Source: Verrucomicrobiales bacterium
GTDB lineage: Bacteria; Verrucomicrobiota; Verrucomicrobiia; Verrucomicrobiales; DEV007
Direction of reading: 5' to 3'
Length of the DNA stretch: 64,000 nt
NCBI GenBank assembly: GCA_024638765.1
Contig: JAHEJT010000004.1
Span: forward strand, 174-64,173
The notes under the pieces were generated by a model. That model searched no databases. It saw nothing but the letters and a program-made list of their open reading frames with translations, and was not told the DNA's origin. Below, piece by piece: positions 19,090 to 35,970 of this stretch. The translations under genes and the position numbers were made by a program. Position 1 is the stretch's first letter; the number at the start of each line of letters is the position of its first letter.

Positions 19090-19497
19090 TCAGGGGTTCT
19101 TCTTATAAGCCAGAGAACCCGCCTGGATCTCGAGGAAGGGTTCGGCGGATTCGCGGGCTTCGACGGAAAGACCCGGCAGGCCGAAGGAGTTTCCGGCTAA
19201 GGCGCCGCTGGTTGCCGTCGCCCCGGAGACGATGTTGTCGATGGTGGCTTCGACATCGCCCGGGACCACGAAATCGACGCCGGCGACCTGGGCGGCGGAG
19301 CAAATGGAAGCGAGGGTCTGGGCGTTGCGGCGGTTTATGGTGGGATCGACCGCCTCACTGGTGAGCCCGATGACGGTGGGGATCAGGATTCCGGCCATGA
19401 TACCGATGACCATAATGACGACCAGCAATTCGACCATGCTGAAGCCGGGCGCAGGGCGGCGCCTTGGAGGAGCTGAGTTCCCGTGGGGATGAATCAT
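19090..19497 (-). CDS. Type IV pilin-like protein, paralog 1 (prepilin-type N-terminus, no Cys)
   Basis: Leader MIHPHGNSAPPRRRPAPG / FSMVELLVVIMVIGIMAGILIP. Shares NRRNAQTL..AAQVAGVDF..GLPGLS with 19797..20222 and 25059..25463. Confidence 0.85.
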   Translation of the reverse strand: MIHPHGNSAPPRRRPAPGFSMVELLVVIMVIGIMAGILIPTVIGLTSEAVDPTINRRNAQTLASICSAAQVAGVDFVVPGDVEATIDNIVSGATATSGALAGNSFGLPGLSVEARESAEPFLEIQAGSLAYKKNP

Positions 19498-19518
19498 GGT
19501 TAGAATCTCTAAAATCCA

Positions 19519-19547
19519 TATCTACACTAATTTTCAGGATTAGTCAA
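19519..19547 (-). promoter_or_regulatory. Candidate sigma70-type promoter of pilin paralog 1 (TTGACT-17-TAGATA), within the shared GCTTGACTAAT context
   Basis: The minus strand reads gcTTGACTaatcctgaaaattagtgTAGATAtgg. The -10 is weak because it lacks the terminal T. The -35 context is shared by all three pilin genes. Confidence 0.35.
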
Positions 19548-19796
19548 GCTATCTTGAGCATCGCCTCCCCAGGTGGACGGCGGTTCCAGGGAGGTCCATC
19601 GTTGCGCTTCAGACAGTTACCCGGCCTTCTTTCCCCGGATGGCGGCGGCGCTCTTCGCCAAAGCCAAGGCCTGCCGGGAGAAAGGCCGGACGGAGTGTGC
19701 CGGCAGGAGGAATCGCCCAGGTCTGTTATGCCGTTTCAGCTTCCGCGGGTCGCCGTCGAGATGCGCCCTCAGGCAGGCCGCCCTTAACCACCGGGG

Positions 19797-20222
19797 TCAG
19801 CTCCCGATATCGGCGTTATACACGAGCATGCCGTGCTCAATGGCAAGGTAGGTAGCGGCGCGCTGCTGTTCCACGACGCTGAGGCCGGGAACGCTGAAGG
19901 TGTGACCGGCAAAAACGCCTCCGTTGGGCACACCGCCGTCGACAATGTTCTGAACCGTGTTCTCGAGGCTGCCGGGGTCCAGGAAATCGAGACCCGCCAC
20001 CTGAGCCGAGACGAAGACGTTGGTGAGATTCTGTGCGTTGCGCCGGTCCTTGGCGAGTTTCGAGGAAACCTCATTGAGACCGGTGATGCTCGGAATCAGG
20101 ATCGACCCGAGGATTCCGATGATCGCGATCACCGTGAGCATTTCGATGAGGCTGAAACCGCCCTGTGACTTGCGGGCGAGCCTGCGACTCTTCTTCGTCC
20201 CCTGGAATAAAGCTTGTTTCAT
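19797..20222 (-). CDS. Type IV pilin-like protein, paralog 2
   Basis: ORF 19797..20510 trimmed to ATG 20222 (MKQALFQGTKKSRRLARKSQGG / FSLIEMLTVIAIIGILGSILIP). DRRNAQNL..SAQVAGLDF..SVPGLS. Confidence 0.85.
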   Translation of the reverse strand: MKQALFQGTKKSRRLARKSQGGFSLIEMLTVIAIIGILGSILIPSITGLNEVSSKLAKDRRNAQNLTNVFVSAQVAGLDFLDPGSLENTVQNIVDGGVPNGGVFAGHTFSVPGLSVVEQQRAATYLAIEHGMLVYNADIGS

Positions 20223-20250
20223 TTTCCCCTGTCCTATTCTCAACATTATG

Positions 20251-20279
20251 AATATTGCCGATTTTGCTGTATTAATCAA
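20251..20279 (-). promoter_or_regulatory. Candidate sigma70-type promoter of pilin paralog 2 (TTGATT-17-AATATT)
   Basis: The minus strand reads gcTTGATTaatacagcaaaatcggcAATATTcat, about 22 nt upstream of ATG 20222. Confidence 0.4.
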
Positions 20280-20627
20280 GCTTATTCTGCTCATTATTAG
20301 CAATTTTTTATTTTTACGGCTCTCATTTTTGAGAGGAGGGCCGGCCCTTGCGCGCTGCATGGGGCGACAAAGAGGGAGATAATTCACATAACTCATTGAA
20401 CATGAGTTATTTATAGATTCTTGCCGGGCCTGCTGGAGAATCCTTACGCGGTGCAAGCGTCGCGGAACCGGGGTGAGAGCGGGGAGCGGGAGTCCGAGGA
20501 CGCCCATCAAGGCACCGCAAGTGCGCGTCAGGGCATTGAAATCAAGGCGCCTCCCAAAGGGCGCCCGGGGGGAAGGGAGTCACGGACCGGGATCAGCCGG
20601 CGCCTCGCACCCCTCAAAGAGCTGGGA

Positions 20628-21068
20628 TTAGAGGGCCGCTGATTCGGGCTTGGAGAGCCCCCACTGCACCATCTGGGAGAGCTTTTCTACAGTCACCGGC
20701 TTGTGCAGCACCCCGAAAAATCCTTCGGCGCGGAACATCTTGCCGGCGCCTTCTTCGAAGTAGCCGCTGGTCGCGATGATGCGGATGTTCGGATCGAACT
20801 CGAGCAGGGCCTTGGCGGCTTCGATTCCGGAAAGACCACCTCCCGGAAAAGTGAGATCCATGATCACGAGCGAAATCGGCTCTCCGCACTCGTAATTCTC
20901 CCGATAGATATCGAGAGCTTCCTCGCCGTTGGCTGCCAAGACTGGCTTGTGCCCGAGAGTTTCGAGGACCGCTTTGGTCACCATGAGCATACCCTCTTCG
21001 TCGTCGACGACCAGGACCCTGGCCCCGCTTTCGACGCGAGGTTGATCTTCTGTTGCAGTAGATTCCAT
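20628..21068 (-). CDS. Stand-alone CheY-like response-regulator receiver protein
   Basis: ORF 20628..21116 trimmed to ATG 21068. VLVVDDEEG, LVIMDLTFPG (phospho-Asp), IIATSGY and HKP are all present. No output domain. Confidence 0.85.
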   Translation of the reverse strand: MESTATEDQPRVESGARVLVVDDEEGMLMVTKAVLETLGHKPVLAANGEEALDIYRENYECGEPISLVIMDLTFPGGGLSGIEAAKALLEFDPNIRIIATSGYFEEGAGKMFRAEGFFGVLHKPVTVEKLSQMVQWGLSKPESAAL

Positions 21069-21129
21069 TGTTTTCCTTGGTTTGTTTCTTATCCGCAGAT
21101 GTCGCTCCCGCGTCACAGCTTGCCAGTGT

Positions 21130-23304
21130 CTACGCGGTGTAACTCAGTCCCCGGATTTCCTCGAGAGTTGTGTTTCCAGCCAGGATGTTGCGAAGTCCTT
21201 CCTGGTAAAGCGTCAGCATGCCGTTTCTGGCGGCCAACTCGCGGAGCTTGCTTTGGGGGGCGCCTTCCTCGACGAGATCGCGCATCTCCATAGTCACGGT
21301 CGTCATTTCCATGAGAGCCAATCTCCCTTTGTAACCCGTGTTATGGCATTCCTCGCAGCCGACCTTCTCGTAAATGGGATGTTTCAGCTCGCCCTTGATT
21401 ATTCCCTGCTTTTGAAGAATCTCTTCGATTTCCTTGGTCTCTTCGGAAGGTCTCTTGCAGTAAGGGCAGATCCGGCGCACCAGCCTCTGTGCCTGGGTCA
21501 TGGCCAGAGAGTCGCAAAGCAGGAAGGCGGGCACCCCCATGGAAAGCAGCCGGGAGATAGCGCGCAGGCAGTCGTTAGCATGCAATGTGGTCAAGACGAG
21601 GTGACCCGTAAGCGCCGCATTCACTGCGGCGGTGGCGGTCTCTTCGTCGCGACACTCACCGATCAGAATGACATCCGGGTCGGAACGCAGTAAGGCGCGC
21701 AGACCTGTAAGGAAATCGATGCCGTGGATAACATCGGTCTGCGTCTGGTTGATCCCTTCGATTTCATATTCGATCGGGTCCTCGATAGTGTGAATGTTGA
21801 TATCCTCTTCATTGACGCTGTTGAGCAAGGCGTAAAGGGTGGTGGTTTTACCACTACCGGTCGGTCCCGTCACAAGGATGAGACCCTGGTCGCGCGTCAT
21901 GGCGTTGGCCACGATATCGCTTTGCCGCTTGGAGAAATTCAACTCCGAGAGTTCTTTCAAGCCGTCCTGCTTGTCGAGGAATCGAAGAATCAATTTCTGA
22001 AGATCCTTCCGGCAAGGTACCGCTGCGGCACGGACGTCGACGCGGCGCGAGCCAAGAGACATCGCAAAGCGACCGTCCTGGGTATCCTTCCGGTTCTGCC
22101 CCATGTTGGCATAGTTCTTGATCAGGGCGATGAATCGCGGGAGGAGTTCCTCGGAACCGCTGTAAATAGTTTTCAGACTCCCGTCGATACGGGCGCGGAA
22201 GCGGGCCGTGTTATAATAGCGCTCGAGATGGACGTCACTGGCGCCTGCCGAAACCGAGTTGTAAAGAACCCAGTGGATGATTTCTTCGGCACTATGATTG
22301 ACGTTCTTGGGATCGATCGCGTAAACATCCTCAGGAATGATTTCGACCAAGTTCGTGCTGTCGGAATAAGCGTAATCATCGTCAGAAAGCGTGGCCGAAT
22401 CCATGCTTAGGCCGATGTCGTTACTGCGGGCAATGGCTTTGCGGATGGCCTTGCTGTCAGCAAGGACGTTGACGAACTCGATGGGATCGTTGCCTGAGGA
22501 GAGCCATTCGTCCTCGAAGGCGTAATTCTTTTCGGTCTCGCTGAGCAGGTATACGCGATGCTTGCCGGTATAGACCGGGTAGACGCCGTGCTTTTCCAGG
22601 AGCAGGTTCGGAAACTCTTCCTGGCGAGGCGCGTCCTCGGGATTAAAGCAGAGCACCGGCCGGCTGGCCGCGAGATAATGGAGGGCGATTCCCAGATGCG
22701 GCTGTATCGCATTGAACTTGGCGATATCCATTTCATCGCCTTTTTTCGCCGCGTCATGGTAAGCGCGCGCAAGCCGCTCACGCTCCACTTCATCGTAGGG
22801 GTAATTCTTGATCAGCCAGTCAAAGGCCGCTTCCAAATTCCCCTGTTCGATCTCGGGTTTGGGGAGGTGCTCGAGAGGATTTTCCTTGGGCAGCGGATTC
22901 GCAGAAACGCGCTGCACGATTTCCCGGCGGATATTCTCGTACTGAGTGGGGTTAATCGCCACCTTGACACTGAGGCAATCAGGCACTCCCCAGACTTCCT
23001 CTGATTTAGGATTGTGGTGGGCGAAGACAAGCAGCGGGCCGAGGTTGGTTACGGGAAGCCAGGGCTCCTCGCTGTGGGGCCAGCGGCCGAGGTGGCGGAC
23101 CAGCATCTCCGCCTCTACGTTGCAGGAAGCGCGCGGCAGTTCCACCGGCATGATGCCAAAGTGAACGGCCACGCCTTCGAGCGAAACCAGGCTACTGGCT
23201 TCTTTAGGCTGATCCCGCTCCGGGTTCAACAGGCGCGATTCGAAGGCGGAACTCACTTCTCCGGCTTCGTTGCCTTGGTTGACTTCTACTTGGCCTAGGT
23301 TCAT
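21130..23304 (-). CDS. pilB: PilB/GspE-family secretion/pilus-assembly ATPase with a long N-terminal region
   Basis: Walker A GPTGSGKTTTLYA. Tetracysteine CPYCKRP...CEECHNTGYKGR. 724 aa. Confidence 0.9.
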   Translation of the reverse strand: MNLGQVEVNQGNEAGEVSSAFESRLLNPERDQPKEASSLVSLEGVAVHFGIMPVELPRASCNVEAEMLVRHLGRWPHSEEPWLPVTNLGPLLVFAHHNPKSEEVWGVPDCLSVKVAINPTQYENIRREIVQRVSANPLPKENPLEHLPKPEIEQGNLEAAFDWLIKNYPYDEVERERLARAYHDAAKKGDEMDIAKFNAIQPHLGIALHYLAASRPVLCFNPEDAPRQEEFPNLLLEKHGVYPVYTGKHRVYLLSETEKNYAFEDEWLSSGNDPIEFVNVLADSKAIRKAIARSNDIGLSMDSATLSDDDYAYSDSTNLVEIIPEDVYAIDPKNVNHSAEEIIHWVLYNSVSAGASDVHLERYYNTARFRARIDGSLKTIYSGSEELLPRFIALIKNYANMGQNRKDTQDGRFAMSLGSRRVDVRAAAVPCRKDLQKLILRFLDKQDGLKELSELNFSKRQSDIVANAMTRDQGLILVTGPTGSGKTTTLYALLNSVNEEDINIHTIEDPIEYEIEGINQTQTDVIHGIDFLTGLRALLRSDPDVILIGECRDEETATAAVNAALTGHLVLTTLHANDCLRAISRLLSMGVPAFLLCDSLAMTQAQRLVRRICPYCKRPSEETKEIEEILQKQGIIKGELKHPIYEKVGCEECHNTGYKGRLALMEMTTVTMEMRDLVEEGAPQSKLRELAARNGMLTLYQEGLRNILAGNTTLEEIRGLSYTA

Positions 23305-23365
23305 TTCGGGGCAGTCTCTAGTCTCTAGTTCTTCTTAAATCGGATTCTGGGAGGAAAGTCCGGTG

Positions 23366-23938
23366 CTATGGGGCGGCCTGAGGTGGGATCGGAGGGATCT
23401 TGGGTTCCGGATCCTGGCTGGTGTAACTTGAAAGCGCAGAAGACATCCGCCCTTGACCGGAAGTGCCATCCGCGCCATTGGTAAAATCGATTTTGATACC
23501 GCTGCCCGCTGTGCCGGCCTTTAACAGTTCGAAAACTTTTCCGTTCCATCGGATACGATAGGTCTCGTCGTCGCTGGAGACTGCAGGATCCCAGTAAGGA
23601 GTCACGTACGGTGAACCGGCGTCGGCCAGTTCGTCGTCAGGGTGCCGCCACTGCAAAGTGGTAAGGACATCCATCTCGTCATCGGTATTGGCATCATCCC
23701 GGGCGAGCACGATCTCGTAATTGGTCTGCCCGAAACTGGCGATACAGTTGTTCAGATGGTTGATGAGATCCTGTGCAGCCCCATTTTTCGAGCCCTCGCG
23801 CACGCGGCTGAAAGCGGCCAGGGCACCGGCGGTGAGCACTCCGACGATAGTGATGGTCGTCAGGATTTCAACCAGCGACATGCCTCCGCGATTGGTGCGC
23901 GCGGTGGATGAAATTCCTTTGTGAAGTGATGTCCTCAT
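23366..23938 (-). CDS. Pseudopilin / minor pilin (prepilin-type N-terminus)
   Basis: NRGG / MSLVEILTTITIVGVLTAGALAAF. Confidence 0.8.
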   Translation of the reverse strand: MRTSLHKGISSTARTNRGGMSLVEILTTITIVGVLTAGALAAFSRVREGSKNGAAQDLINHLNNCIASFGQTNYEIVLARDDANTDDEMDVLTTLQWRHPDDELADAGSPYVTPYWDPAVSSDDETYRIRWNGKVFELLKAGTAGSGIKIDFTNGADGTSGQGRMSSALSSYTSQDPEPKIPPIPPQAAP

Positions 23939-24002
23939 GTCTATCCAGCAGCTTCGGCGTAAAACCTGCGAACCGCGCCTGTCGCGGAAACCACAGGGCC
24001 GA

Positions 24003-24404
24003 TTAGTAGTCGATCGCGATTGACGATCCGCCTTCAGTCTTGGTCAGTCCGCATTTCTTCAGCGTGGTAACCGCCGTCGGCAACGCGAGACCATAGTTTG
24101 TCGGCATATAGCTGTTGAACGAGTTAGGCGCGAACGCCAGGTAAGGACTCACCAGGTTGTAGCGCTGCTCGCTCGTAGCGCCGCTCCAGGCAGTGCCCGC
24201 GGCGTCACGGCCGTTGGCCTGGACAAAAGAGGCAACTCCCATGTTCATCGCTTCCGCCCGGGCGATGGCGAGGTTGGTTTCGCTGTCGCTCTTCATCTGC
24301 ACGATATTGGGAATCGCGAGGAAAGCCATAATGCCGAGGATGGCGACCGCGGCGAGGACTTCCACCAGGGAAAAGCCTTTTACTAGGGACGTCGAGTGTT
24401 TCAT
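24003..24404 (-). CDS. Pseudopilin / minor pilin
   Basis: VKG / FSLVEVLAAVAILGIMAFLAIPNI. Confidence 0.8.
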   Translation of the reverse strand: MKHSTSLVKGFSLVEVLAAVAILGIMAFLAIPNIVQMKSDSETNLAIARAEAMNMGVASFVQANGRDAAGTAWSGATSEQRYNLVSPYLAFAPNSFNSYMPTNYGLALPTAVTTLKKCGLTKTEGGSSIAIDY

Positions 24405-24434
24405 TGGAGTCTCCGATTTTCGATTTGTGGCAGT

Positions 24435-24890
24435 TTAGGATTTGATGAGACTTACTTTGGGATAAGAGGAAGATTGCCACGTTGGAAGCTCCAACCACCA
24501 TCCCAGCTTCACCATCGCGTGCGTTTGCAGGCGCGTGTTATTGGTGGTGTGATCCGTAAAGTGATCCATGGTCTCCTCGTCGAGATAAGGTTGAATCAGA
24601 TCCTCGAGTCGTTCTTGGAAAGTCCGAGCCGTGCCCCCGTCTTCGTTGTAGAGCAGGCGGGCGTCCTCGACGGTATTGAGCCCGGAGATTTCGCTGGCAA
24701 CCCAGGCGTTGACCGCGGTTTGCAAGGTAGCCTGTTGCTGACGGGCGATGACCCGGCGAGTGTCCTGGGAGGCGTTCGAGAACTGGCTGACCGCCAGGGC
24801 TCCCATGATCGCGATCACGGAGATGACAAGGAGGAGTTCCACGAGGGTAAATCCCCCCCTGCGCTTGTGCTTGTCTTTCAGGATATTCAT
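24435..24890 (-). CDS. Pseudopilin / minor pilin (G7 tract at the leader cleavage-site codons)
   Basis: MNILKDKHKRRGG / FTLVELLLVISVIAIMGALAV. Confidence 0.8.
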   Translation of the reverse strand: MNILKDKHKRRGGFTLVELLLVISVIAIMGALAVSQFSNASQDTRRVIARQQQATLQTAVNAWVASEISGLNTVEDARLLYNEDGGTARTFQERLEDLIQPYLDEETMDHFTDHTTNNTRLQTHAMVKLGWWLELPTWQSSSYPKVSLIKS

Positions 24891-24974
24891 TCGCGGGCTT
24901 CGGGTGTGATGAGATTTTGTCGAAGTAAGCGCTGGCGATTGGGGAGTGCGGAAAATTCGTAGAGGGGAAATATT

Positions 24975-25015
24975 TTGTGGAGAAAGGGCCCTCCGGCGCC
25001 GAAGCGCCGGAGGGC
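24975..25015 (-). terminator. Strong hairpin terminator after pilin paralog 3
   Basis: The minus strand reads GCCCTCCGGCGC-TTCG-GCGCCGGAGGGC (12-bp perfect stem, UUCG loop) followed by CCTTTCTCC. A second 7-bp hairpin lies at 25029..25051. Confidence 0.6.
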
Positions 25016-25058
25016 ATTGACAATTTTGTTTCAGCTAAACTTCAGCTGAAAGCCGTGA

Positions 25059-25463
25059 TCAGGTGCCGCCACCGGGAAGGTAAACGAGCATTCCGTCCGC
25101 GGTGAGGTCCAGGAAGGTACCCGCGCGGCCCTGCTCCAGGGAGCTCAAGTTCGGAACACCAAAGAAGGTGCCGTTGAACGGGCTGCCTGCGGCAGACACG
25201 GTCGCACCGGTGACAACCTTGGCGATGGTGTTGCCTTCGTTGCCGCTCACGAGGAAGTCGAGCCCAGCGGCTTGCGCCGAAGCGTAGACAGAAGCGAGGT
25301 TCTGCGCGTTACGCTTGCTCTTGGCTTCTTCGGCTGCATCGTTGATCCGGCCGATATTCGGCACGGCGATAGCGGCGATAATGCCGATGACTGCGATAAC
25401 GACGAGCATTTCAACAAGGCTGAAGCCCGAAGTATTTTTCTTTGCGATTAGTTTCGTATTCAT
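25059..25463 (-). CDS. Type IV pilin-like protein, paralog 3 (candidate major pilin; own promoter and terminator)
   Basis: ORF 25059..25493. ATG 25463 gives MNTKLIAKKNTSG / FSLVEMLVVIAVIGIIAAIAVP. KRNAQNL..SAQAAGLDF..GVPNLS. ATG 25493 is an alternative start. Confidence 0.85.
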   Translation of the reverse strand: MNTKLIAKKNTSGFSLVEMLVVIAVIGIIAAIAVPNIGRINDAAEEAKSKRNAQNLASVYASAQAAGLDFLVSGNEGNTIAKVVTGATVSAAGSPFNGTFFGVPNLSSLEQGRAGTFLDLTADGMLVYLPGGGT

Positions 25464-25532
25464 TGGTTTTGTTTCTCCAGTTATACAATGCATGACTTTT
25501 ATTGATTTTATAAGGCCATGTATAGTTGCCGG

Positions 25533-25561
25533 AATATTCCATAATTTCTATAATTAGTCAA
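25533..25561 (-). promoter_or_regulatory. Candidate sigma70-type promoter of pilin paralog 3 (TTGACT-17-AATATT) in an AT-rich island
   Basis: The minus strand reads ccTTGACTaattatagaaattatggAATATTcc. Confidence 0.4.
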
Positions 25562-25693
25562 GGAATTGCTATGGATTTTATGGAAATTGCCGGAAAAATT
25601 TCCCCGTAGCCTTCGCATTGGGGCCAGCATCCCCTGCTCTCGGTCCCCGAGAGTGAAGATTTCGTTATAACTCGTTGATTACGAGCTATTTAC

Positions 25694-26920
25694 TTAACTT
25701 TTCGGCAGGATGGTATCGCCGAGGCTGAAGATCGGGCCGTAAATGGCGTACACCAGGAGACCTACCAGGCTGCCCAGCGCCATGATCGTGATCGGCTCAA
25801 TGATCTTATCAATCTGACTCGCGATCGCGTCCAACTCCTCTTCATAGTCGTCCGCGATCTCGTTGAGCGGCTCGGTGCCCGAGCCCGTCTCCCCAGCGAC
25901 CTCCATGATTCCGCAGATGTTGCGGCCGTCGTCCCCCAGCCAGTGGGACTCCACCATGAAGCTCTCCTGAATGGAGCGCCCTTCCGAGATATGGTCCCTG
26001 ACCCGGTTGAAAAACTCCTTGTAATAGTAATTGCCCGCCCCATCCGAGGTGATGTCCAGGGCAGTGTTCAGACGCACATTCGAATCCACCAGCATGGACA
26101 GCGTGCGGAAGCTGACCGTGGCAGCCGCTTTGCGGATGATATTTCCCAGCACCGGAATCCTCACCATCACCTTCTGAACCGGCGTCTGACTCATGATCCA
26201 TCCCCATTTCTTAAAGAGCATCACCAGCCCGACTATCGGGATAAGCACGAGGTAAGGCTGTTTCAATAGGGTGTCGGAAAGCTTCATGAGAACCATGGTC
26301 GGCAGTGGCAATTCCGCCTTGAGCGAACCGTAAAGTTTCACCATCGCCGGCACCAAAGTGAAACTCATGGTAATGATGACGCCCAGCCCCAGAGTCAGGA
26401 CGATGGCCGGGTAAATCATCCCGCCGCGAAGCTTCCGGATGATGGTCATGGTCTTCTTCTGCCCGGTGGCAAGCTGCCGGAATACCCGGGGCAGCTGCCC
26501 GGATTCTTCACCGGCCCGGATCAGGGCCAGGATCTCCGTGGTGAACACCCGGGGATGTTTGGCCATGGCGTCACTTATTTTTTCACCATTGGAGATATCG
26601 TGGCAGAGATCGGCTATGATCCCCCGGTAAACCGGAGATTTCATGCGGTTGCTCTGCAACTGGAAACTCTTGACCGTGGGAATGTCTCTCTCAAAACACT
26701 TTGCCAGACCGCTGAAAAACGCCACGCGGTCAGCCAAGGGCAGGCTGGGGCTCGTCAGCCGCTGAATCTTCTCATCCAGTCCCGTGATGGTGGTGACTTG
26801 GGCAGTCTCACTGGTAGTTTGTCCCGCGCCGATCAGGGCGCGATCATCGCTAAAGGTGTCGACGAGCAAGTGCATTACCCGTCCTGTATGAACATTGGTC
26901 AGAGAGACTTTCTTAAGCAT
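25694..26920 (-). CDS. pilC: PilC/GspF-family inner-membrane platform protein
   Basis: 408 aa. Duplicated GspF-type domains with three TM segments, and a typical C-terminus (AIYGPIFSLGDTI). Confidence 0.9.
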   Translation of the reverse strand: MLKKVSLTNVHTGRVMHLLVDTFSDDRALIGAGQTTSETAQVTTITGLDEKIQRLTSPSLPLADRVAFFSGLAKCFERDIPTVKSFQLQSNRMKSPVYRGIIADLCHDISNGEKISDAMAKHPRVFTTEILALIRAGEESGQLPRVFRQLATGQKKTMTIIRKLRGGMIYPAIVLTLGLGVIITMSFTLVPAMVKLYGSLKAELPLPTMVLMKLSDTLLKQPYLVLIPIVGLVMLFKKWGWIMSQTPVQKVMVRIPVLGNIIRKAAATVSFRTLSMLVDSNVRLNTALDITSDGAGNYYYKEFFNRVRDHISEGRSIQESFMVESHWLGDDGRNICGIMEVAGETGSGTEPLNEIADDYEEELDAIASQIDKIIEPITIMALGSLVGLLVYAIYGPIFSLGDTILPKS

Positions 26921-26980: not shown

Positions 26981-27430
26981 CTAGCGAATCGTATTTCGAA
27001 AGGCGCGCACCGAGAATTGGCGCGTCGGCAACGTCCCCTGAGATCCGCCGGTCCAGGAGCCCTCGGTCCAACCCCCTTCGTCCTTCACGGAATCAAGAGT
27101 GAGCGTAATCACCTGTCCCTCCAGGTTGGCTTCAGCGGGCGAGACGGTCACAAAGGTCGGTGCGCCGCTCCGGGCGGGCTCGGGTGGCATGATAGCTCCG
27201 ATTGCCGCCGGATCGAGGCCCAACTGGTAAAGGCGGGCATGGCATTCCAGGTAATTGACCCCGCGCGCCAGACGATGGCCCATTTCCTCCTGGGTCGTCA
27301 TCGTCAGGCTGAAGGAAGCAGCTGCGCTGATCCCTATCAGGAGAATTCCGCTAGCGACGAGCACTTCTATGAGCGAATAGCCCGAACCCTTCTTCCGCGC
27401 TGTTTGTGTATGAAATTCTGCTGGTTTCAT
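26981..27430 (-). CDS. Pseudopilin / minor pilin
   Basis: KKGSG / YSLIEVLVASGILLIGISAAASF. The start overlaps the upstream stop by 4 nt. Confidence 0.8.
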   Translation of the reverse strand: MKPAEFHTQTARKKGSGYSLIEVLVASGILLIGISAAASFSLTMTTQEEMGHRLARGVNYLECHARLYQLGLDPAAIGAIMPPEPARSGAPTFVTVSPAEANLEGQVITLTLDSVKDEGGWTEGSWTGGSQGTLPTRQFSVRAFRNTIR

Positions 27431-28821: not shown

Positions 28822-28846
28822 TTTGATCGGTGAAATCACGGTGACA

Positions 28847-29872
28847 TTAAAAGGCAGGAAACATTGGAAACACGAACATGTAGCTGGTTCGCCCTCCCAT
28901 CCAGGCGTACTCAGACACCGGATTGGAGGCCGGAAGGGCGGCAGGCAGTTCGTCCACTCGCATGGATGAAGCACCGGGATCCGGCCACCACATGAAGTAA
29001 AAAGGCCTGTTCTCCGCGACCTTGAACCGGTCGGCCCAATTTCTTTCCGCCGCGATATCGTCATCTTCGACGATCGAAAGCCGGCTCCGGCGTTCAAAAG
29101 AGACGAAAAGCGGCCGAAAAAGCACCTCATTGTCCACCTGCCCATAGAAGCAATCGTAGTAATTGGTAAGTCTCATCGGCAGACTTGCCACCGCTTGGTC
29201 CGGCGCGTAGCGGCGCACGGAGACGTAAGTGCCCGCGGGACTTGACGGCACGATCAGGTCGATCTCATAGATGGCCAGAGTATTCAGAAGAGACTCATCG
29301 TTGTTTTGCCGGAACATGAATATCGTTCCGCTGCTGGCGTCTCCCGCGACATTGAAGTAGGCCGGAGCATTTTCGAAAATCAAGCCGGCATCCGGTATCA
29401 TCGCGATAAGGTGTTGGCGGAAAGCCTCCGGTGTATCCAGCATGGGGGTGCCGGCGGGGAAATTGATGGCCTCGTCCGGATGTGGGGAAGGTCGGACTGT
29501 ATTAAGCTTGTTTCTCCCCAGACAAAAAATCGCGGAAGCACGTTCGACGTCTTCATAAAAACGCCCGCGTAATTCATCAGAGCGCGCCATTCTTCCGTAG
29601 TTTGGCGTCGCATAGACGTTTATGCTGCTCTGCGGCAGATCATACAGGTTCGTAAGCACGGTGTTATCCGGGAAAGTCACCGTAACAACGCTCGAAAGCC
29701 TCTTGTTATTCGAGGTGATGCTCTGGAAAACGAGGGAAGCCGCACTGAATGCCAGCGCGGAAATGCTCAAAGCAGCCAGAGCTTCAATCAGGGTGAACCC
29801 ATGTCCCCCCGTAGACTGCCGTACCGTCCCTCTTGGGGCGATCCGGAGTCTTCTTGGCCATTTCTTCTTCAT
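28847..29872 (-). CDS. Large (341 aa) pilin-like protein with a canonical prepilin N-terminus
   Basis: GGHG / FTLIEALAALSISALAFSAASLVF. Confidence 0.7.
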   Translation of the reverse strand: MKKKWPRRLRIAPRGTVRQSTGGHGFTLIEALAALSISALAFSAASLVFQSITSNNKRLSSVVTVTFPDNTVLTNLYDLPQSSINVYATPNYGRMARSDELRGRFYEDVERASAIFCLGRNKLNTVRPSPHPDEAINFPAGTPMLDTPEAFRQHLIAMIPDAGLIFENAPAYFNVAGDASSGTIFMFRQNNDESLLNTLAIYEIDLIVPSSPAGTYVSVRRYAPDQAVASLPMRLTNYYDCFYGQVDNEVLFRPLFVSFERRSRLSIVEDDDIAAERNWADRFKVAENRPFYFMWWPDPGASSMRVDELPAALPASNPVSEYAWMGGRTSYMFVFPMFPAF

Positions 29873-29973
29873 TGGTTTGTTTGTGTTTCCAGGCGGCCGC
29901 GAAGATCTTTCCTGTAACTTCCCGGCTGGTCCTCAGAACTCAACCCGGGAAATCACTCTGTTTTCGCAGGGCC

Positions 29974-30585
29974 TCAGTTCTTCTTCCCTCCAGGACCCTC
30001 GCCAAAGGAAGGCAAAGAAACGACACCTTCCCTCGCCTTCTTCGTCTGGGTGTAGGTCTGGATGTCTCGTTCCTTGGCATTGCTGTCTCCAGGTTGTCCT
30101 TTGAGGACAAACTCGACGCTTGGTTCCATGTTGATCGGTAAAATAAGTTTTCTGCCGTCGTAACGGGATGTTCTCTTGTCCAGCCAGGCCAGCTCCGCCT
30201 GTACTTCCGAAACGTCGCTGACAATAATCAACTCGGTCTGCCCCTTAAGGAGCTTGGGAACGAGTTTCCCTTTTTCCAGGATCAGATCTCCCACGAGAAC
30301 CTTAACCGAGCCGTTGTCGCCTTCGCTGACACCGTTGACAGCGAGATTGGCGAAAATCCTCCGGATCCGGCTTTCTTCGGACTCCTTGTCATAATAGGCT
30401 TGAACCTGTTTTTCGGCTCGGACTGCAAAGGGATTCCTTTCCGATTCCGGAATAATGATCGGACTTTTCTGCTCCGGGAGGATCCCGATGGCTAAAGCGG
30501 TTTCCTGTGCTTTCGAAGAAAGCGCGCAGAGCGATAACAGGGCCGAGAGAAGGCTGCAAAGTTTCAATGAGTTTCGCGATTTCAT
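29974..30585 (-). CDS. Secreted hypothetical protein in the PilP position
   Basis: ATG 30585 gives the signal peptide MKSRNSLKLCSLLSALLSLCALSSKAQE. A TTG at 30606 that overlaps the upstream stop is an alternative. Assigned by position only. Confidence 0.5.
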   Translation of the reverse strand: MKSRNSLKLCSLLSALLSLCALSSKAQETALAIGILPEQKSPIIIPESERNPFAVRAEKQVQAYYDKESEESRIRRIFANLAVNGVSEGDNGSVKVLVGDLILEKGKLVPKLLKGQTELIIVSDVSEVQAELAWLDKRTSRYDGRKLILPINMEPSVEFVLKGQPGDSNAKERDIQTYTQTKKAREGVVSLPSFGEGPGGKKN

Positions 30586-30602
30586 GGCGACTTGATTCTG
30601 CT

Positions 30603-31163
30603 TCAACTATTTTCGTTTCCTTGTCCGGTCTGAATCAGGGGAACATCCATGAGCACCTCTATATTGATGTCATTGCCCCCTCCTCCTTTGGAAATCCGGT
30701 AAGTCGAAATTCTTGAGGTGGGCATGCTTTCTTCCAAGTGTCCCAGCCAGTTCATGGTCTTAATGTATTCATCCTGAATCTTCAGATGCGCCCTCAATCT
30801 TTTCTGGATGAATCCGCTCTTACTCTTTTGACCGAGGATCTGGGTGCGTTGTGAGGTCGCGAACACCTGTCCGGATTTGATCAGTTCGATAATGCGCTGC
30901 TCCTCCTGCTCGGTATTCCAGGTGCTGGCCATGTAAGGCAGCCATTTTTCAAAGTACTCACGTAACCCCGAGGACTTTTGCTTGAGATCGGTAAGCTTCT
31001 TCTCGGACTCGCCTCGTTGAAACTCAGACGCTTTAGCCTTGGATTCAGCGTCCCCTGCTTCCTTCCGGATGCTATTCAGTTCACTTCGCATTTTTTGCAT
31101 CCCGTAACCCACAATCGCGATGAGCAGTGCGATCACAATGCATGCCATTTGTTTCTCTTTCAT
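30603..31163 (-). CDS. Bitopic coiled-coil protein in the PilO position
   Basis: One N-terminal TM (ACIVIALLIAIVGYG) followed by a charged coiled coil. Assigned by position and topology only. Confidence 0.5.
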   Translation of the reverse strand: MKEKQMACIVIALLIAIVGYGMQKMRSELNSIRKEAGDAESKAKASEFQRGESEKKLTDLKQKSSGLREYFEKWLPYMASTWNTEQEEQRIIELIKSGQVFATSQRTQILGQKSKSGFIQKRLRAHLKIQDEYIKTMNWLGHLEESMPTSRISTYRISKGGGGNDINIEVLMDVPLIQTGQGNENS

Positions 31164-31181
31164 GATGATCGATGAGTTAAA

Positions 31182-31751
31182 CTACTGTTTGTTGGGATTC
31201 TGCCAGATAAGTGTGGCCCTGTAATCGAGGGAGTCTTTGACCTTGTTCTGCTGGGCGGAATAGGCGCGATAGCTCAGCTCCTTGATCGACTTCAAAGTGC
31301 GCTCCAACTGCTCCGGACCCGCACCGTTAAGCTTGAGGCCCAGGTAAAGCTGCGCCGGAATTTCGGCGTTACGCGTTATCGTGAGTTCGGAAATCGTTAC
31401 CGAGGGATCCATGCTTCGCGTGATGGCAACGGTGAGCGGTTGGATGGCATGCGCGCCTTCCATCCAAGCGACAATGTCGCGAGCGCGCAGGTTCTGCTTG
31501 GTGATGGCATCCATCTCGGAAGTGAGCTTCTGGTTGGCCTGGTTTTGGCGCGCATCCTCGGCGAGCCACTTCTCCTTGCCGGCAGTGGCTTGGCGGATTC
31601 CGAGATAAAACCACGCTCCCAGCACCAGTGCTCCCACCACGGAAGCGTAAAAGAGAATCGGGACCAACCGGAGATAACCGGGGAGGCCATGGGAAACATC
31701 CGGGCGTTCCGATTTGAGATCGTGACAGAGTAAGGCGTCTTTTGCGTCCAT
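31182..31751 (-). CDS. Bitopic protein in the PilN position
   Basis: TM LVPILFYASVVGALVLGAWFYLGI followed by a coiled coil. Assigned by position and topology only. Confidence 0.5.
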   Translation of the reverse strand: MDAKDALLCHDLKSERPDVSHGLPGYLRLVPILFYASVVGALVLGAWFYLGIRQATAGKEKWLAEDARQNQANQKLTSEMDAITKQNLRARDIVAWMEGAHAIQPLTVAITRSMDPSVTISELTITRNAEIPAQLYLGLKLNGAGPEQLERTLKSIKELSYRAYSAQQNKVKDSLDYRATLIWQNPNKQ

Positions 31752-31772
31752 AGCGTGATTGCCAATTGTGCT

Positions 31773-32642
31773 TTAATTCCTCCCCAACACCGTCCACAGG
31801 TGGTCGGGCTGGGTAACATCCTGAAGGCTAAAATTCTTAAGGCCCTCCACCATCCGCTGCGCGAATGGCGTTTCCAGGCGATCGTTGAGGAATACGACAG
31901 GCGTCCCTGGTTCCAGATCCTGGAAAAATGGAGCGGTCAGCTGCGCTACGGGACCGATATCGTCTTCGTAAACGCCGCTGCGGGCACGCAGCTCAGACCA
32001 CTGCCCCTGCCGTTGCCGGAGCACGAACACCGACCCCTCGCAGCAAGTCAGCAGGATCAGGTCCTTCGGTCTTTCTTCCTCGGAGAGACGGTTTAGACCG
32101 TTCAAGTATTCGGCGACCATTCCAAAAATGCCGACGCTGATGCGCGCCGGCTGAAGACCGATCATCTTTAATACCTCATCGCTCGATTTCACCAACGACT
32201 CATCGCAGGCGAGCAGGATGCTCGCGCTGGTTTCCGGATTGTGATAGACGGCGTATTTCTTGGTTCGGTCGCATTTCGCTCCCAGGACCGCCTTCGGATT
32301 ACTACGAATGAGCTTTTCATATCCGGCACGGCGCGAGAGATTGTTTTCCAAACTGATGACAAAGCGATTGTTGATGGAAACGCAAACCCAGCCGTTGTCT
32401 GTCAGCGATTTCCACTCTTCAGCCATCTGTGGGGCAACTTCCTTGAGTTCCCCCTCGACCGATCCTGCGTCTTCGAAATCCCCCTTCTTACCAACCGATC
32501 TCCAGGAGATCTTATCGCGGCTGATATTGAGCAGGAGGTAGCGTCTCCCGACCATCCTCTTGCTCATGGCAGAGCTGCTGTCATCGGAATCGGGCTGAAA
32601 AGCCGAGAAAGTAAGAACGTCTTTAATATCCTGGAGCTTCAT
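31773..32642 (-). CDS. Cytoplasmic hypothetical protein in the PilM position
   Basis: 289 aa with no TM, 1 nt downstream of the PilT-like stop. I could not see an actin-like ATPase motif. Confidence 0.4.
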   Translation of the reverse strand: MKLQDIKDVLTFSAFQPDSDDSSSAMSKRMVGRRYLLLNISRDKISWRSVGKKGDFEDAGSVEGELKEVAPQMAEEWKSLTDNGWVCVSINNRFVISLENNLSRRAGYEKLIRSNPKAVLGAKCDRTKKYAVYHNPETSASILLACDESLVKSSDEVLKMIGLQPARISVGIFGMVAEYLNGLNRLSEEERPKDLILLTCCEGSVFVLRQRQGQWSELRARSGVYEDDIGPVAQLTAPFFQDLEPGTPVVFLNDRLETPFAQRMVEGLKNFSLQDVTQPDHLWTVLGRN

Positions 32643-32643
32643 T

Positions 32644-33702
32644 TTAAGTCGTTGGTATCGTTATGGATTCAGCCTCGAGATATTCGACGATCTCGTGTGC
32701 GGTGAATCCGCTCTTAGTAGTCGAGGAACTCTGGAAACCCTCTTCGGCACGAATGCCAATGCTTCTCTCGAAGTTCATCATTCCGCGGCTCCAGCCGGCT
32801 TCCAGCTCGTGGTCGAGCTTCTTGAATTCGTTGGCCCGGATAATCGCGGAAACGGAGTCGTATTTCAGAAGAATTTCGTGAATGGGAAAGCGCTTGTCTT
32901 TGTTCTCATCCAGCATGAGCTGCTGACACAGAATCATGCGCATGCTATCCGCGAAGGAGAGCACCGCGCTTTCCACGCGCTCCACCGGGATCAGCTTAAT
33001 GAAGCGTTGCACCGTTTCTGCGGCGGAAGAGGTGTGCAGGGTGGCGACCACAACGTGACCCGTTTCCGCAGCCTGCAGGGCAATTTCCGCGGTCTCGCCG
33101 TCACGAATTTCACCAATGATGATCACGTCGGGAGCCTGGCGCAGAGCCGCTTTAAGCGAAGCGCCGAAATCGTGCTCATCCGAGCCCATTTCCCGTTGCG
33201 AGATTAGAGAAGGTAAATCCTCGGGATAAATGTATTCGATGGGATCCTCGAAGCTGATGACGTGCTCTCGACGGCGTTCCGCGCGGGCGAGAACCAGGGA
33301 GGCAATGGTCGTCGATTTACCGCTTCCCGTCGCGCCGCACACGAGAAAGAGGCCGTTGCGTGCCTCCAGGACGGCCTTGGTGGCTGCGGGGGGCACCTTG
33401 ATCTGGTCGGTGCTGGGAATGCTCTCCGGGAGCAGGCGCATGACCCAACGGTAACGCCCCCGGGTCACCATGCGGCTGACGCGGAAGCGCCGTCCACCAA
33501 GGGTGATGGCGTAATCCAGGCAGCCGGGCTTGACCTCCATGGCCTCGGAGGGCTGGTAAACAAAAGAGTCGTAACAGAGTTTTCCGTTACGCTTGTAACA
33601 AAGCTGTTCCCAGGGAGTGATGTAGAAGTCACTGACGCCGGAATCCTGCGAGACGTGCATGATCCGGTGACCCAATTGACTCTGTTCGTTGATGTCGTCC
33701 AT
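32644..33702 (-). CDS. pilT: PilT/PilU-family hexameric ATPase (first gene of the minus-strand pilus operon)
   Basis: Walker A GATGSGKSTTIASL. DVIIIGEIRD. ETGHVVVATLHTSSA. Confidence 0.85.
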   Translation of the reverse strand: MDDINEQSQLGHRIMHVSQDSGVSDFYITPWEQLCYKRNGKLCYDSFVYQPSEAMEVKPGCLDYAITLGGRRFRVSRMVTRGRYRWVMRLLPESIPSTDQIKVPPAATKAVLEARNGLFLVCGATGSGKSTTIASLVLARAERRREHVISFEDPIEYIYPEDLPSLISQREMGSDEHDFGASLKAALRQAPDVIIIGEIRDGETAEIALQAAETGHVVVATLHTSSAAETVQRFIKLIPVERVESAVLSFADSMRMILCQQLMLDENKDKRFPIHEILLKYDSVSAIIRANEFKKLDHELEAGWSRGMMNFERSIGIRAEEGFQSSSTTKSGFTAHEIVEYLEAESITIPTT

Positions 33703-34005
33703 CGGTGGCTCAGCAGAGGAACCCGGGACTCCACGTAGAGGGATCCGGCGGGGCGGACGTGGGATACAGGGTGTGGAAGGGTTTGTTAGATTCTATGGTA
33801 ATTATGAAAAATTTGGCAATCTTTGCTTATCAAATTAATCTAGTTCACCTCTTTATTATGGATTTTTATTATAGAGTGAGTCAATACAAATTGATAGTTT
33901 TTTTTATCATAAACATATTTTTCCTTTATCAAAGTGGGAATTTCATGATATATAAATCTTTAACTTGTTCTAATTACATCTGAAGATCTCGAGAAGCTGA
34001 GTATC
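33703..34005. promoter_or_regulatory. Sharply AT-rich divergent control region between the PilT-led operon and the secretin gene
   Basis: From about 33780 to 33990 the sequence is dominated by A/T runs, unlike the flanks. There is a perfect TATAAT on the minus strand (33873..33868). On the plus strand, TTGATA-17-CATATT lies at 33891..33919. Confidence 0.5.
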
Positions 34006-35970
34006 ATGAAAAAACTAAGCCTTGTTCTACTGTCAGTGTTCCTGCTCGCCTCGGGCTCGTCCGCCCAGGACCCCAGGCAGCTTGTCCTCGCCAATTCTCC
34101 CGCCTATGAAGCTGCCGCCATTCCCCTTCGCAGTTCGTCTCCTCAGCAATACGAGTTCTCCCAAGCCGTCCTCGGGGATGTTCTTCGGCTCCTCGCTCAC
34201 GACGCCGGCATCTCCTTCTTTTCACTTCCCACGGAAGCGGATGGCGCCGACACCCTCGTCACCTTCAACATCACCTCGAGTCCCTTTAAAGCCCTGGAGA
34301 CCCTCGCCTCGGCCAACGGCGTCGCTCTCATCTACGACGAAGGGATCTGGTACATGCGGCCCGCCAACGATAAGGAGCTCATCGGCCGCACCTATTTCAT
34401 CAAGTACAACTCGCTGGAAAGCGTCACCTCCAGCGGCGGCGGCAGTGGTGGCGGCGGTGGTAGTAGTAGCGGCCTCAATACCGGGATCAGCCTCCAAGGC
34501 AACACTTCGACCTTTACCGTCGAGCCCAGCGCCCTCCTCGAAGATATTCGCGAGCTTCTCGATCTTCAAACCACCGGCTTCAGCGCGAACATTGCGGGCT
34601 CCGTCACTGTCGATAGCCTCGGGCAGACCGTCGCACCTGCCACCCTGATCAATGACCAGAGCCTGATGACCAGCAACAATACCAACTCGAGCACAGGCAA
34701 GGTCATCTGGAATTCCGACACCAACTCCCTTTACGTCGTCGCCACCCGGCAACAGCACCAGTGGATCGAAGCTTACCTCGCCTCTGCCGACCAGCCGCAG
34801 TCGCTGATCGCCCTCGAAGTGAAGTTCTTCGAAACCTCCAAGGATCCCAAGGAACAATTCGGCCTGGACTGGACCGGCACACTCGGGAAGGGATACGAAG
34901 GCGTCTTCTTCACACCCGACCCGCCGGCGGCGGGCACTCCTGCCACCCCCCGTGCGGCCGGTGATGCTGAGAATATCTTCGGCCTCGTCAACCCCAACCG
35001 GCTCGGCGATTTCGCGGCCCCGACGACCGCGGTCCTCAGCCTCGACGATGTGCGCGTCCGCCTTCGCGCGCTGGTGGACGATTCCAAGACCACGACCGTC
35101 TCTTACCCGCGGATGCTGACACTTAACAACCGTGAAGTCGTCCTGCGCAGCGTTATCAACCAGCCGGTCCTGGCCTCTTCCTCGAGCACCTCGGTCGGAG
35201 CAGGCGCCACCACGACGTCCTCGGTCGATTACCTGCCAATCGGAACCGTCCTCAACATTCTCCCCAAGACAATGTCCGACGATCAGATCTTGCTCAACAT
35301 CTCGCTGACCATCTCCAGCATCCTTACCACCGAGAACATCGAGGGCAATCCCTTCCCGGTGGCAAGTTCGCGCGTTTACTCCGCACCGGTGCTCGTGGGA
35401 TCGGGATACACGGTCGCCATTGGTGGCCTGGATGAGGCGGACGAATCTGTCTCCAATGTTGGCGTCCCCATCCTTGGAAGAATTCCCCTGTTCGGCACCG
35501 CGTTCTCTTACCGTGACCGCGCCAAGAGCCGCAAGAATCTGCTCATGATGATTACGCCGACCCTCGTCGACTCCCGTGGCGGCGGCCTTCCGGATGAACC
35601 CCAGGCGGTCGTCCGGCAGACTCCAGAGAAAACCGCTAAGCCTCGAATTTTTGCCGACGGAACCCTCGTCCAGGACATCTCGGAGTTTCCGCAGGCGCTC
35701 GAGGCGCTCTCCAACGAACTGGACGTCCTGACTCAGACAGTGCGAGAAGGGCGCAGCAGCAAGCAGGTCATCGAAAAGCTCGCGGAACTCAACGAGGCAA
35801 CCGAACTTACGGTCAGAAAAATCCGGCTGACCATCGAGCAAAATCCTGACAGCTGGGAAGAGCTTCGGCCCTACGAAATCGGATTCGTGGAAATGACCGA
35901 TCGGGTCGGACGCATTCGCCGCGACAGCAAGAAGAGCGATTACGATCGCAAGTTTCCGTTTAATTTCTAG
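34006..35970 (+). CDS. pilQ: Secretin (PilQ/GspD family) outer-membrane channel
   Basis: Signal peptide MKKLSLVLLSVFLLASGSSAQ. Gly/Ser linker. C-terminal secretin motif VPILGRIPLFGTAFSYRDRAKSRKNLLMMITPTLV. Confidence 0.9.
   Translation: MKKLSLVLLSVFLLASGSSAQDPRQLVLANSPAYEAAAIPLRSSSPQQYEFSQAVLGDVLRLLAHDAGISFFSLPTEADGADTLVTFNITSSPFKALETLASANGVALIYDEGIWYMRPANDKELIGRTYFIKYNSLESVTSSGGGSGGGGGSSSGLNTGISLQGNTSTFTVEPSALLEDIRELLDLQTTGFSANIAGSVTVDSLGQTVAPATLINDQSLMTSNNTNSSTGKVIWNSDTNSLYVVATRQQHQWIEAYLASADQPQSLIALEVKFFETSKDPKEQFGLDWTGTLGKGYEGVFFTPDPPAAGTPATPRAAGDAENIFGLVNPNRLGDFAAPTTAVLSLDDVRVRLRALVDDSKTTTVSYPRMLTLNNREVVLRSVINQPVLASSSSTSVGAGATTTSSVDYLPIGTVLNILPKTMSDDQILLNISLTISSILTTENIEGNPFPVASSRVYSAPVLVGSGYTVAIGGLDEADESVSNVGVPILGRIPLFGTAFSYRDRAKSRKNLLMMITPTLVDSRGGGLPDEPQAVVRQTPEKTAKPRIFADGTLVQDISEFPQALEALSNELDVLTQTVREGRSSKQVIEKLAELNEATELTVRKIRLTIEQNPDSWEELRPYEIGFVEMTDRVGRIRRDSKKSDYDRKFPFNF

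Follow-up and report, generated by a model that had tools for sequence, protein, structure and literature searches.

A conserved secretin-gated type IV filament locus of Verrucomicrobiales, probably encoding a T4aP-like machine with a predicted GspL/PilM-fold adaptor

The Verrucomicrobiales degrade polysaccharides and abound in oceans, soils and guts, and to our knowledge their surface machines are almost unstudied, with the exception of the Amuc_1098-1102 cluster of Akkermansia. Amuc_1098, the PilQ of that cluster, is a secretin of 907 aa that carries a tetratricopeptide-repeat (TPR) domain at its N-terminus (PMC4960237). Among type IV filament (TFF) systems at large, 884 'generic' ones were left unassigned and Verrucomicrobia went unmentioned; PilT was lost in type II secretion systems (T2SS), the prepilin peptidase often serves several systems or has its gene elsewhere, and in many diderms natural transformation is driven by PilT-carrying machines that resemble type IVa pili (T4aP) (Denise et al. 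2019, PMC6668835). Here we analyze a 64,000-nucleotide stretch of a Verrucomicrobiales genome (assembly GCA_024638765.1, contig JAHEJT010000004.1, positions 174 to 64,173; hereafter the window), which carries an 18-gene filament locus at window positions 19090-35970. The locus probably encodes a complete, lineage-specific, T4aP-like and secretin-gated type IV filament machine, most likely a retractile surface pilus. Our literature search found no paper describing a locus of this type.

We confirmed 18 open reading frames (ORFs) in this interval, 17 on the minus strand and one, the divergent secretin gene, on the plus strand, in agreement with the initial annotation, which had described an 18-gene filament locus whose secretin gene diverges from a minus-strand string headed by the gene of a PilT-like ATPase; every ORF was recovered and the core families scored above Pfam cutoffs. 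The encoded set comprises a secretin, a PilT-family and a PilB/GspE-type ATPase, a PilC/GspF platform, a receiver, eight N_methyl proteins, a large pilin-like protein without Glu5 (E5-less) and four ORFs in the M, N, O and P positions. Pfam domains named below for individual genes of the locus exceeded the gathering score unless stated otherwise, and all of these genes other than the secretin gene lie on the minus strand.

The operon opens with the gene for a 352-aa ATPase (32644-33702; T2SSE 148 bits), a putative retraction motor whose best NCBIfam model was pilT_fam (267.7 bits, cutoff 319.1). Against Protein Data Bank (PDB) sequences it scored 172-146 bits with PilT/PilU, 105 with DotB and about 90 with PilB/GspE and, judged from these scores, it is probably a PilT-family ATPase, clearly nearest the solved PilT and PilU. 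The 724-aa ATPase (21130-23304; T2SSE 348 bits over residues 339-717) is of the PilB/GspE extension type and reached 394.6 bits on the NCBIfam PilB model (TIGR02538, cutoff 675.65) and 387.5 on GspE (cutoff 630); among PDB entries, Myxococcus xanthus PilB gave 301, GspE 286 and PilF 283 bits. Its N-terminal region of about 330 aa is conserved in orthologues and has no Pfam match; residues 41-120 and 201-280 are 52-64% conserved among orthologues, and a CxxC...CxxC arrangement (CPYC and CEEC) could be read from the sequence. The 408-aa inner-membrane platform (25694-26920; T2SSF 125 bits, two repeats) scored 189.6 bits on PilC and 184 on GspF (GspF cutoff 424). The secretin, a 654-aa protein encoded on the plus strand (34006-35970; Pfam Secretin 110 bits), scored 132 bits on GspD (cutoff 351) and 107.5 on PilQ (TIGR02515, cutoff 284). 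The near-equal scores on PilB and GspE, PilC and GspF, and GspD and PilQ, all under their cutoffs, place the machine equidistant from the T4aP and T2SS families. The secretin is built of a signal peptide, one detectable N-domain and a secretin domain at residues 355-522; Secretin_N scored 23 bits, under its cutoff, and no AMIN domain was reported by Pfam in this protein. Its C-terminal tail of about 130 aa (525-654) ends in FPFNF, and residues 561-654 are 13-18% conserved in five orthologues. By eye, the tail looks helix-rich. A Gly/Ser-rich linker spans residues 140-155.

Between the PilT-like gene and the pilin genes lie the four small ORFs, here termed M (289 aa, 31773-32642), N (189 aa, 31182-31751), O (186 aa, 30603-31163) and P (210 aa, 29974-30606). 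M is a soluble protein. In N, a cytoplasmic tail of 28 aa leads into a transmembrane (TM) segment at 29-47, after which comes a periplasmic domain; O carries a TM segment at its N-terminus, and P starts with a signal peptide. Together this is exactly the topology of PilM, PilN, PilO and PilP. The initial annotation had set these ORFs in PilM/N/O/P positions, and by profile search they proved not to be standard members of those families. The four window proteins had no Pfam or NCBIfam match, and profiles built from 24-25 orthologues each found no match in the PDB sequence set. When 73 N, O and P orthologues were scanned singly against Pfam, only noise was returned (T2SSM in 2 of 73, E 0.06). 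The PilM/N/O/P families themselves (PF11104, PF05137, PF04350 and PF04351) were not matched, M having been scanned as the window protein and by its profile against the PDB, and hhalign of the family profiles against single Escherichia coli HofM/N/O/P and GspC/I/J/K/L/M sequences gave nothing significant, the best alignment being the shared pilin N-terminus.

Structures were predicted for M and O. The AlphaFold2 model of M (50-sequence alignment; pLDDT 90.4, pTM 0.87) retrieved the cytoplasmic domain of EpsL/GspL (1yf5, E 1e-12), PilM (5eou and 2ych, about 1e-10) and FtsA with Foldseek, and M, a cytoplasmic actin-like adaptor, is in this predicted model a GspL-cytoplasmic/PilM fold. Residues ~1-24 of M are strongly conserved (K7, V9, L10, F12, A14, F15, P17 and D20) yet have a pLDDT below 50, and this N-terminus looks like a short linear motif for binding a partner, perhaps one of the ATPases. 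M reads LLLNIS, with a near-invariant Asn39, at what we take to be the position of the phosphate-1 Asp of PilM and FtsA; Asn39 there would hint at lost ATP hydrolysis. O was modelled with a pLDDT of 83 as a long N-terminal TM/coiled-coil helix followed by an alpha-beta-beta-alpha-beta-beta domain, and its Foldseek matches were led by M. xanthus PilO (3jc8_Oa, E 1.3e-4), with Pseudomonas aeruginosa PilO (2rjz), PulM (8ab1_B) and EpsM (1uv7) also retrieved; the predicted fold is that of PilO/GspM. A weaker match was Amuc_1100 (6kny), with a root-mean-square deviation of 3.3 Å over 98 columns.

The PilN N-terminal peptide binds PilM in T4aP (PDB 2ych and 5eou). The cytoplasmic N-terminus of N carries the invariant motif HDLKxxRxDxSxGLP (D11, K13, R16, L23 and P31 of N being invariant), which by analogy, we infer, would dock on M; with its topology, this motif makes N a putative analogue of PilN or of the C-terminal part of GspL. 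A paralogous relation of N and O found no support, as hhalign of the two profiles matched a coiled-coil segment only (probability 28%). P combines its signal peptide with an ERNPF motif and a Gly/Leu-rich core (conserved E56, N58, P59, G92, G113 and Q123) and is a candidate PilP/GspC-like connector to the secretin.

The M profile also identified relatives in which these proteins are joined. Searched with HMMER against 1.84 billion representative proteins, it found 119 clusters at E <= 1e-3 and 25 at E <= 1e-30, and Pfam detected no family in any of ten distant members. Several distant members of about 495 aa consist of an M domain, a linker with an N-type motif (HDLNPERQAPRPPLP), a TM segment and a periplasmic part, and the N profile aligned to the C-terminal half of two such fusions, P0315 and P0333, with hhalign probabilities of 96% and 95%. 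By their sequences, M-N fusions with the architecture of GspL exist in relatives. In a Verrucomicrobia metagenome-assembled genome (MAG; locus L025, 6233-7312), O and P are in one 359-aa polypeptide whose P part has no signal peptide. The two kinds of fusion support the view that M is physically coupled to N, and O to P. One such M-N fusion is encoded on a 26.9-kb contig of a distant relative (L038, Logan SRR26844656, GC 0.50) in a single-strand cluster of a secretin, two pilins, five ORFs, a PilT-like ATPase, the M-N fusion, O-like and P-like (TTNPF) proteins, a 726-aa PilB-like ATPase, PilC and an HDOD protein. The first of the five ORFs has a class III signal peptide and the second is E5-less and 458 aa long; the proteins of this cluster are 23-40% identical to those of the window. 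The fusions, including this one, indicate that the module of PilT-like ATPase, M, N, O and P reaches beyond close relatives. The same contig encodes, at 17900-21170 and thus about 2-5 kb beyond the pilus-like cluster, a ParA-like ATPase and a ResT/TelK-type protelomerase. This system may reside on a linear plasmid or a phage-plasmid, or near a hairpin telomere.

All eight N_methyl proteins show a class III signal peptide of the G↓F(S/T)LxE type. In the position between the platform and the minor pilin genes lies pilA3 (144 aa, 25059-25493; N_methyl 34.1 bits), a candidate major pilin without cysteines, on which the GspG model aligned over residues 22-108 at 32.6 bits (cutoff 88.85); 16 loci have one pilin copy at this position. 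Two extra paralogues, pilA2 (143 aa, 19797-20228; N_methyl 31.3 bits) and pilA1 (135 aa, 19090-19497; 26.1 bits), are 48% and 44% identical to pilA3, respectively, and lie downstream of the receiver gene, each after a gap of 300-400 bp; either could serve as an alternative major pilin. In the related loci whose sequence reaches far enough past the receiver gene, additional pilin copies were not detected there. The pilA2 ORF can be extended to 237 aa from a TTG, the pilin itself starting at the ATG at 20228. Three minor pilin genes precede the platform gene in genome order of transcription, namely pp341 (341 aa, 28847-29872, G↓FTLIE; N_methyl 21.3 bits), big464 (464 aa, 27427-28821, KG↓SIAIM; N-terminal TM segment at 14-32) and pp149 (149 aa, 26981-27430, G↓YSLIE; 24.7 bits), and three follow pilA3, namely pp151 (151 aa, 24435-24890; 28.6 bits), pp133 (133 aa, 24003-24404; 23.7 bits) and pp190 (190 aa, 23366-23938, G↓MSLVE; 21.2 bits, exactly the cutoff). 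On pp151 the GspH model matched the N-terminus only (30.6 bits, cutoff 80); pp133 is the most conserved minor pilin, with 49-58% identity across loci. A PDB profile search with pp341, which is conserved in 20 loci, matched the N-terminal pilin helix only.

The large E5-less protein big464, a candidate tip or cap subunit, has the family consensus RGxxLxxAL, with no Glu. It had been labelled a GspK/PilX-type protein, and its size, position and E5-less N-terminus fit that description; the label itself was not confirmed, as none of the 17 orthologues matched T2SSK or PilX_N and the window protein had no Pfam, NCBIfam or PDB match. A deep homologue search found only four proteins, and the family is fast evolving. 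When 49 orthologues of big464, pp341 and pp149 were scanned singly against Pfam, N_methyl was the only family returned, with no T2SSK, PilX_N, PilW, T2SSJ or T2SSI, and none of the pilin-like proteins matched a named pilin family beyond the shared N-terminal segment. The longest ORF of big464 would encode 572 aa (27427-29145); because this version overlaps the upstream gene, the 464-aa start is the plausible one; the start chosen in the NCBI record gives 447 aa.

A genome scan with the window platform protein gave 35 related loci, whose platform orthologues are 56-66% identical. Verrucomicrobial names are attached to 33 of them, one being unlabelled and one labelled Enterobacteriaceae; the named carriers are Verrucomicrobium, Prosthecobacter, Phragmitibacter, several Verrucomicrobiales MAGs and some genomes labelled Akkermansia. 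Searched with all window proteins (tblastn), these loci have a fixed order, kept in up to 35 of them: the divergent secretin gene, then PilT-like, M, N, O, P, the bracketed module pp341-big464-pp149, PilC, pilA, pp151, pp133, pp190, PilB, the receiver (REC) and, often, a hybrid kinase. The PilT-like gene is directly upstream of M in all 23 loci scored (median gap 5 bp). In the window, most neighbors in the string overlap or lie close together (PilT-M 1 bp, O-P -4 bp, pp149-big464 -4 bp, PilB-REC 13 bp), the pilin genes being preceded by larger gaps than the rest. The three closest full-length loci (L001, L002 and L034) lack the pp341-big464-pp149 module between P and PilC, and this putative tip module seems, because of its absence there, to be mobile within genomes or dispensable. 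About 12 loci have nothing pilus-related after PilC (in L028, NUDIX, aminopeptidase and hydrolase genes follow), and the system therefore consists of two separable modules. About half of the components, namely M, N, O, P, the 341-aa and 464-aa proteins and the small minor pilins, escape Pfam, NCBIfam and PDB sequence profiles, and for this reason they are labelled 'hypothetical protein' across the records examined.

The single-domain CheY-like receiver (20628-21116; Response_reg 57.6 bits) has the signature residues in its sequence, namely the DD acidic pocket, the phospho-Asp, the T/S and the K, and REC follows PilB in nine related loci. Just outside the locus, a 932-aa hybrid histidine kinase with HAMP, HisKA, HATPase_c and REC domains (Pfam) is encoded on the minus strand (36297-39095), its gene convergent with that of the secretin. 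Relatives of the kinase lie after REC in L009, L015, L016 and L035 (tblastn, 30-41% identity), the copy in L016 having the same domain architecture. The hybrid kinase is the probable sensor for the locus, and we infer a dedicated two-component input that would, by analogy, be functionally comparable to Pil-Chp or PilSR of T4aP. The intergenic region 33703-34005, from which the secretin gene and the PilT-led operon diverge, has promoter-like hexamer pairs on both strands, at 33884-33855 and 33819-33790 on the minus strand and at 33844-33872 and 33891-33919 on the plus strand, and another promoter-like site lies upstream of pilA3 (25561-25533); these sites are known only as matches to the consensus, and are no more numerous than chance would give. 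A terminator-like hairpin with a 15-bp stem lies 3' of the secretin gene (36013-36048, plus strand; pattern match only). An Rfam scan of the window found no riboswitch, small RNA or other family.

In the retractile pilus that we favor, M would dock on the conserved cytoplasmic N-terminal peptide of N, N would pair with O in the periplasm, and P would join the N-O ring to the secretin. The PilB-like motor would drive the platform to polymerize pilA3, primed by the two minor-pilin triplets, pp341-big464-pp149 and pp151-pp133-pp190, and its replacement by the PilT-like motor would depolymerize the fiber. Prepilins would be cleaved by a peptidase encoded elsewhere in the genome, while the CheY-like receiver and the neighboring hybrid kinase would tune assembly against retraction.

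Several points weigh against this reading. None of the core components attains the cutoff of an NCBIfam equivalog or subfamily model, the pilus function is deduced entirely from homology and predicted fold, the system being known here from its genes, and the putative roles of the six minor pilins were assigned from position only. The secretin scores slightly higher on GspD than on PilQ and M is, by Foldseek, marginally nearer GspL than PilM, and because of these two preferences a role in secretion has to be kept in consideration. Finally, tblastn with E. coli GspO detected no prepilin peptidase gene in the window or in the 35 related loci, and Pfam found no Peptidase_A24 domain among the window ORFs, in line with the initial annotation, which had noted the lack of such a gene in the 64 kb. 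As the peptidase is commonly encoded elsewhere (PMC6668835), its absence near the locus is a trait of the lineage and not an anomaly.

A T2SS-like exporter, in which a short pseudopilus piston would push folded exoproteins through the secretin and the PilT-like ATPase would reset the pseudopilus, is unlikely, albeit a serious contender; its cargo could include, for example, the sulfatases and glycan-degrading enzymes encoded in bulk. The GspD score of the secretin is its best (132 bits vs 107 for PilQ) and the flanks are sulfatase-rich, yet the GspD, GspE and GspF scores are far under their cutoffs and no better than those of the T4aP models. Cytoplasmic EpsL is the top structural match of M, M-N fusions of GspL architecture occur in relatives and O also matches PulM and EpsM, whereas PilT, lost in T2SS (PMC6668835), has a probable family member fixed in the operon here. 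The pilins have no cysteines and the GspG model, although below its cutoff, aligns over pilA3 residues 22-108; no signature of T2SSG, T2SSI, T2SSJ, T2SSK or a GspC-type PDZ domain was found, however, in the window proteins or the scanned orthologues, tblastn with E. coli GspH-K was negative, and GspL, GspM and GspC had no sequence match to the window proteins.

It is doubtful, though conceivable, that the locus represents an unrecognized TFF class present in Verrucomicrobiales and at least one more distant lineage, defined by the module of a PilT-like ATPase, a GspL-like adaptor (split or fused), a PilO/GspM-like protein and P. Such a class, if real, could be a secretion device in which a pseudopilus is retracted by a PilT-family motor coupled to a GspL-like protein, and would then offer a natural model for how T2SS pseudopili are disassembled.

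The surface pilus that we prefer could also have the narrower function of a dedicated DNA-uptake (competence) pilus, which we consider improbable. PilT-bearing T4aP-like machines do power the transformation of many diderms (PMC6668835) and several pilin-like proteins weakly match ComG-type models; these matches are confined to the shared N-terminal helix and lie under the cutoffs, and no ComEA, ComEC or DprA genes were found within the 64 kb.

The base composition of the locus bears on its origin. The coding-sequence GC of the locus is 0.567, against 0.593 for 17 flanking genes, and in 2-kb windows it runs at 0.52-0.58, against about 0.58-0.63 in the flanks, so that the impression of an A/T-rich locus in the initial annotation stands for overall composition; it does not hold at third codon positions, where GC (GC3) is near-equal (0.694 in the locus, 0.708 in the flanks). 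GC at first codon positions (GC1) is lower in the locus (0.577 vs 0.633), and the confinement of the shift to GC1 and intergenic DNA points to amino-acid composition and not to foreign codon usage. The codon-frequency distance between locus and flanks is 0.275, that between the two flank halves 0.156. Pfam reported no integrase or transposase among the flanking ORFs scanned, and the window contains no tRNA gene. Conserved gene order across the Verrucomicrobiales and a GC3 like that of the flanks lead us to reject horizontal transfer, and the adjacency of the PilT-like gene and M in 23 of 23 loci, with the fixed order, shows that the locus is no recent chimera. A recently acquired chimeric island joining T4aP and T2SS modules, which would account for a GC about 2.6 points below that of the flanking coding sequences and for a codon distance in excess of that between flank halves, is therefore highly improbable, as the GC difference sits in GC1 with GC3 almost unchanged, gene order is identical across Verrucomicrobiales genera at 56-66% PilC identity, and the borders are free of integrase, transposase and tRNA genes. 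The locus is a coherent, vertically inherited, lineage-specific system, not a hybrid or foreign one. Of the hybrid content proposed initially, what remains is that the core scores lie midway between T4aP and T2SS and that M is closest to cytoplasmic GspL; synteny and GC3 speak against a hybrid or foreign origin.

The flanking genes encode, by Pfam, sulfatases, proteins with DUF7133, HEAT and cytochrome c domains, and sugar-phosphate-isomerase-like enzymes, and the neighborhood is dominated by genes of sulfated-glycan catabolism. Such flanking content is typical for Planctomycetes-Verrucomicrobia-Chlamydiae (PVC) bacteria. Very large proteins with DUF7133 and HEAT, cytochrome c or cupredoxin domains are encoded at 4566-9308, 39255-42113 and 47787-49283, one large DUF7133-type protein is fused to a sulfatase (1580 aa), and the window further encodes stand-alone sulfatases and 3-keto-disaccharide hydrolases. 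Opposite Pfam-supported genes, long ORFs (444-646 aa) run antisense at 34222-36162 (minus), 18030-19364 (plus) and 61682-63124 (minus); having no family matches, they are most likely artefacts of high G+C content and not genes.

The locus thus defines a second, order-wide filament system of the Verrucomicrobiales. It lies between the design with separate PilM and PilN and that with a fused GspL, and both states occur in nature; the linkage of the PilT-like gene with the adaptor and the split and fused states provide a comparative case for the divergence of type IV pili and T2SS and for the docking of motors on the alignment complex. The alignments obtained here could seed new family models for annotation.

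Compared with known systems, the locus missed the cutoffs for T4aP, T2SS and the MSH pilus. The MSH pilus was rejected on the MshL secretin equivalog (TIGR02519, 97.9 bits, cutoff 250.2), and the Verru_Chthon cassette (TIGR02596/02599, proteins A-D) because matches were confined to the N-terminus and reached 17-22 bits, where the cutoffs are 70 and 256. Like the Amuc_1098-1102 cluster of Akkermansia, ours is a verrucomicrobial, secretin-containing, pilus-like system, and Amuc_1100 shares a PilO-like fold with the predicted fold of O; the two are nevertheless separate systems, as the window secretin scored 63.1 bits on Amuc_1098_fam (NF042912) against a cutoff of 750, is 654 aa long and not a 907-aa TPR-secretin, and the O profile had no sequence match to Amuc_1100. 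A T2SSE ATPase, a T2SSF platform and pilins with class III signal peptides are clustered in the locus, together with an accessory secretin, which places it in the 'generic' TFF definition (PMC6668835), a residual bin and not a described class; like the 884 generic systems, the locus would probably fail the specific T4aP and T2SS models.

With the T2SS it shares one large locus that includes the secretin gene and many pseudopilin-like genes, an M with the predicted fold and the size of the cytoplasmic domain of GspL, an O that resembles GspM in its predicted fold, relatives in which M and N are fused as in GspL, and a large E5-less pilin-like protein as in GspK. It differs from the T2SS in its PilT-like ATPase and in the split of M and N in Verrucomicrobiales.

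From T4aP it differs in that pilT lies inside the operon before M, and not in a separate pilT/pilU locus, and in that the secretin gene is divergent and does not follow pilP. M, nearest to cytoplasmic GspL, has about 60 aa fewer than PilM, and sequence similarity to PilMNOP or FimU/PilVWX could not be detected in M, N, O, P or the minor pilins; for the core T4aP minor pilins FimU, PilV, PilW, PilX and PilE, window proteins matched in the N_methyl segment only. PilB has 724 aa with an unrecognized N-terminal region, and pilD is not at the locus. In common with the T4aP of Myxococcus, Pseudomonas and Thermus, the locus has two motor ATPases, putatively for extension and retraction, besides a platform and a secretin, a soluble actin-like M separate from a bitopic N, an equal M-N-O-P order, an O with the predicted fold of PilO, and a small major pilin accompanied by several minor pilins.

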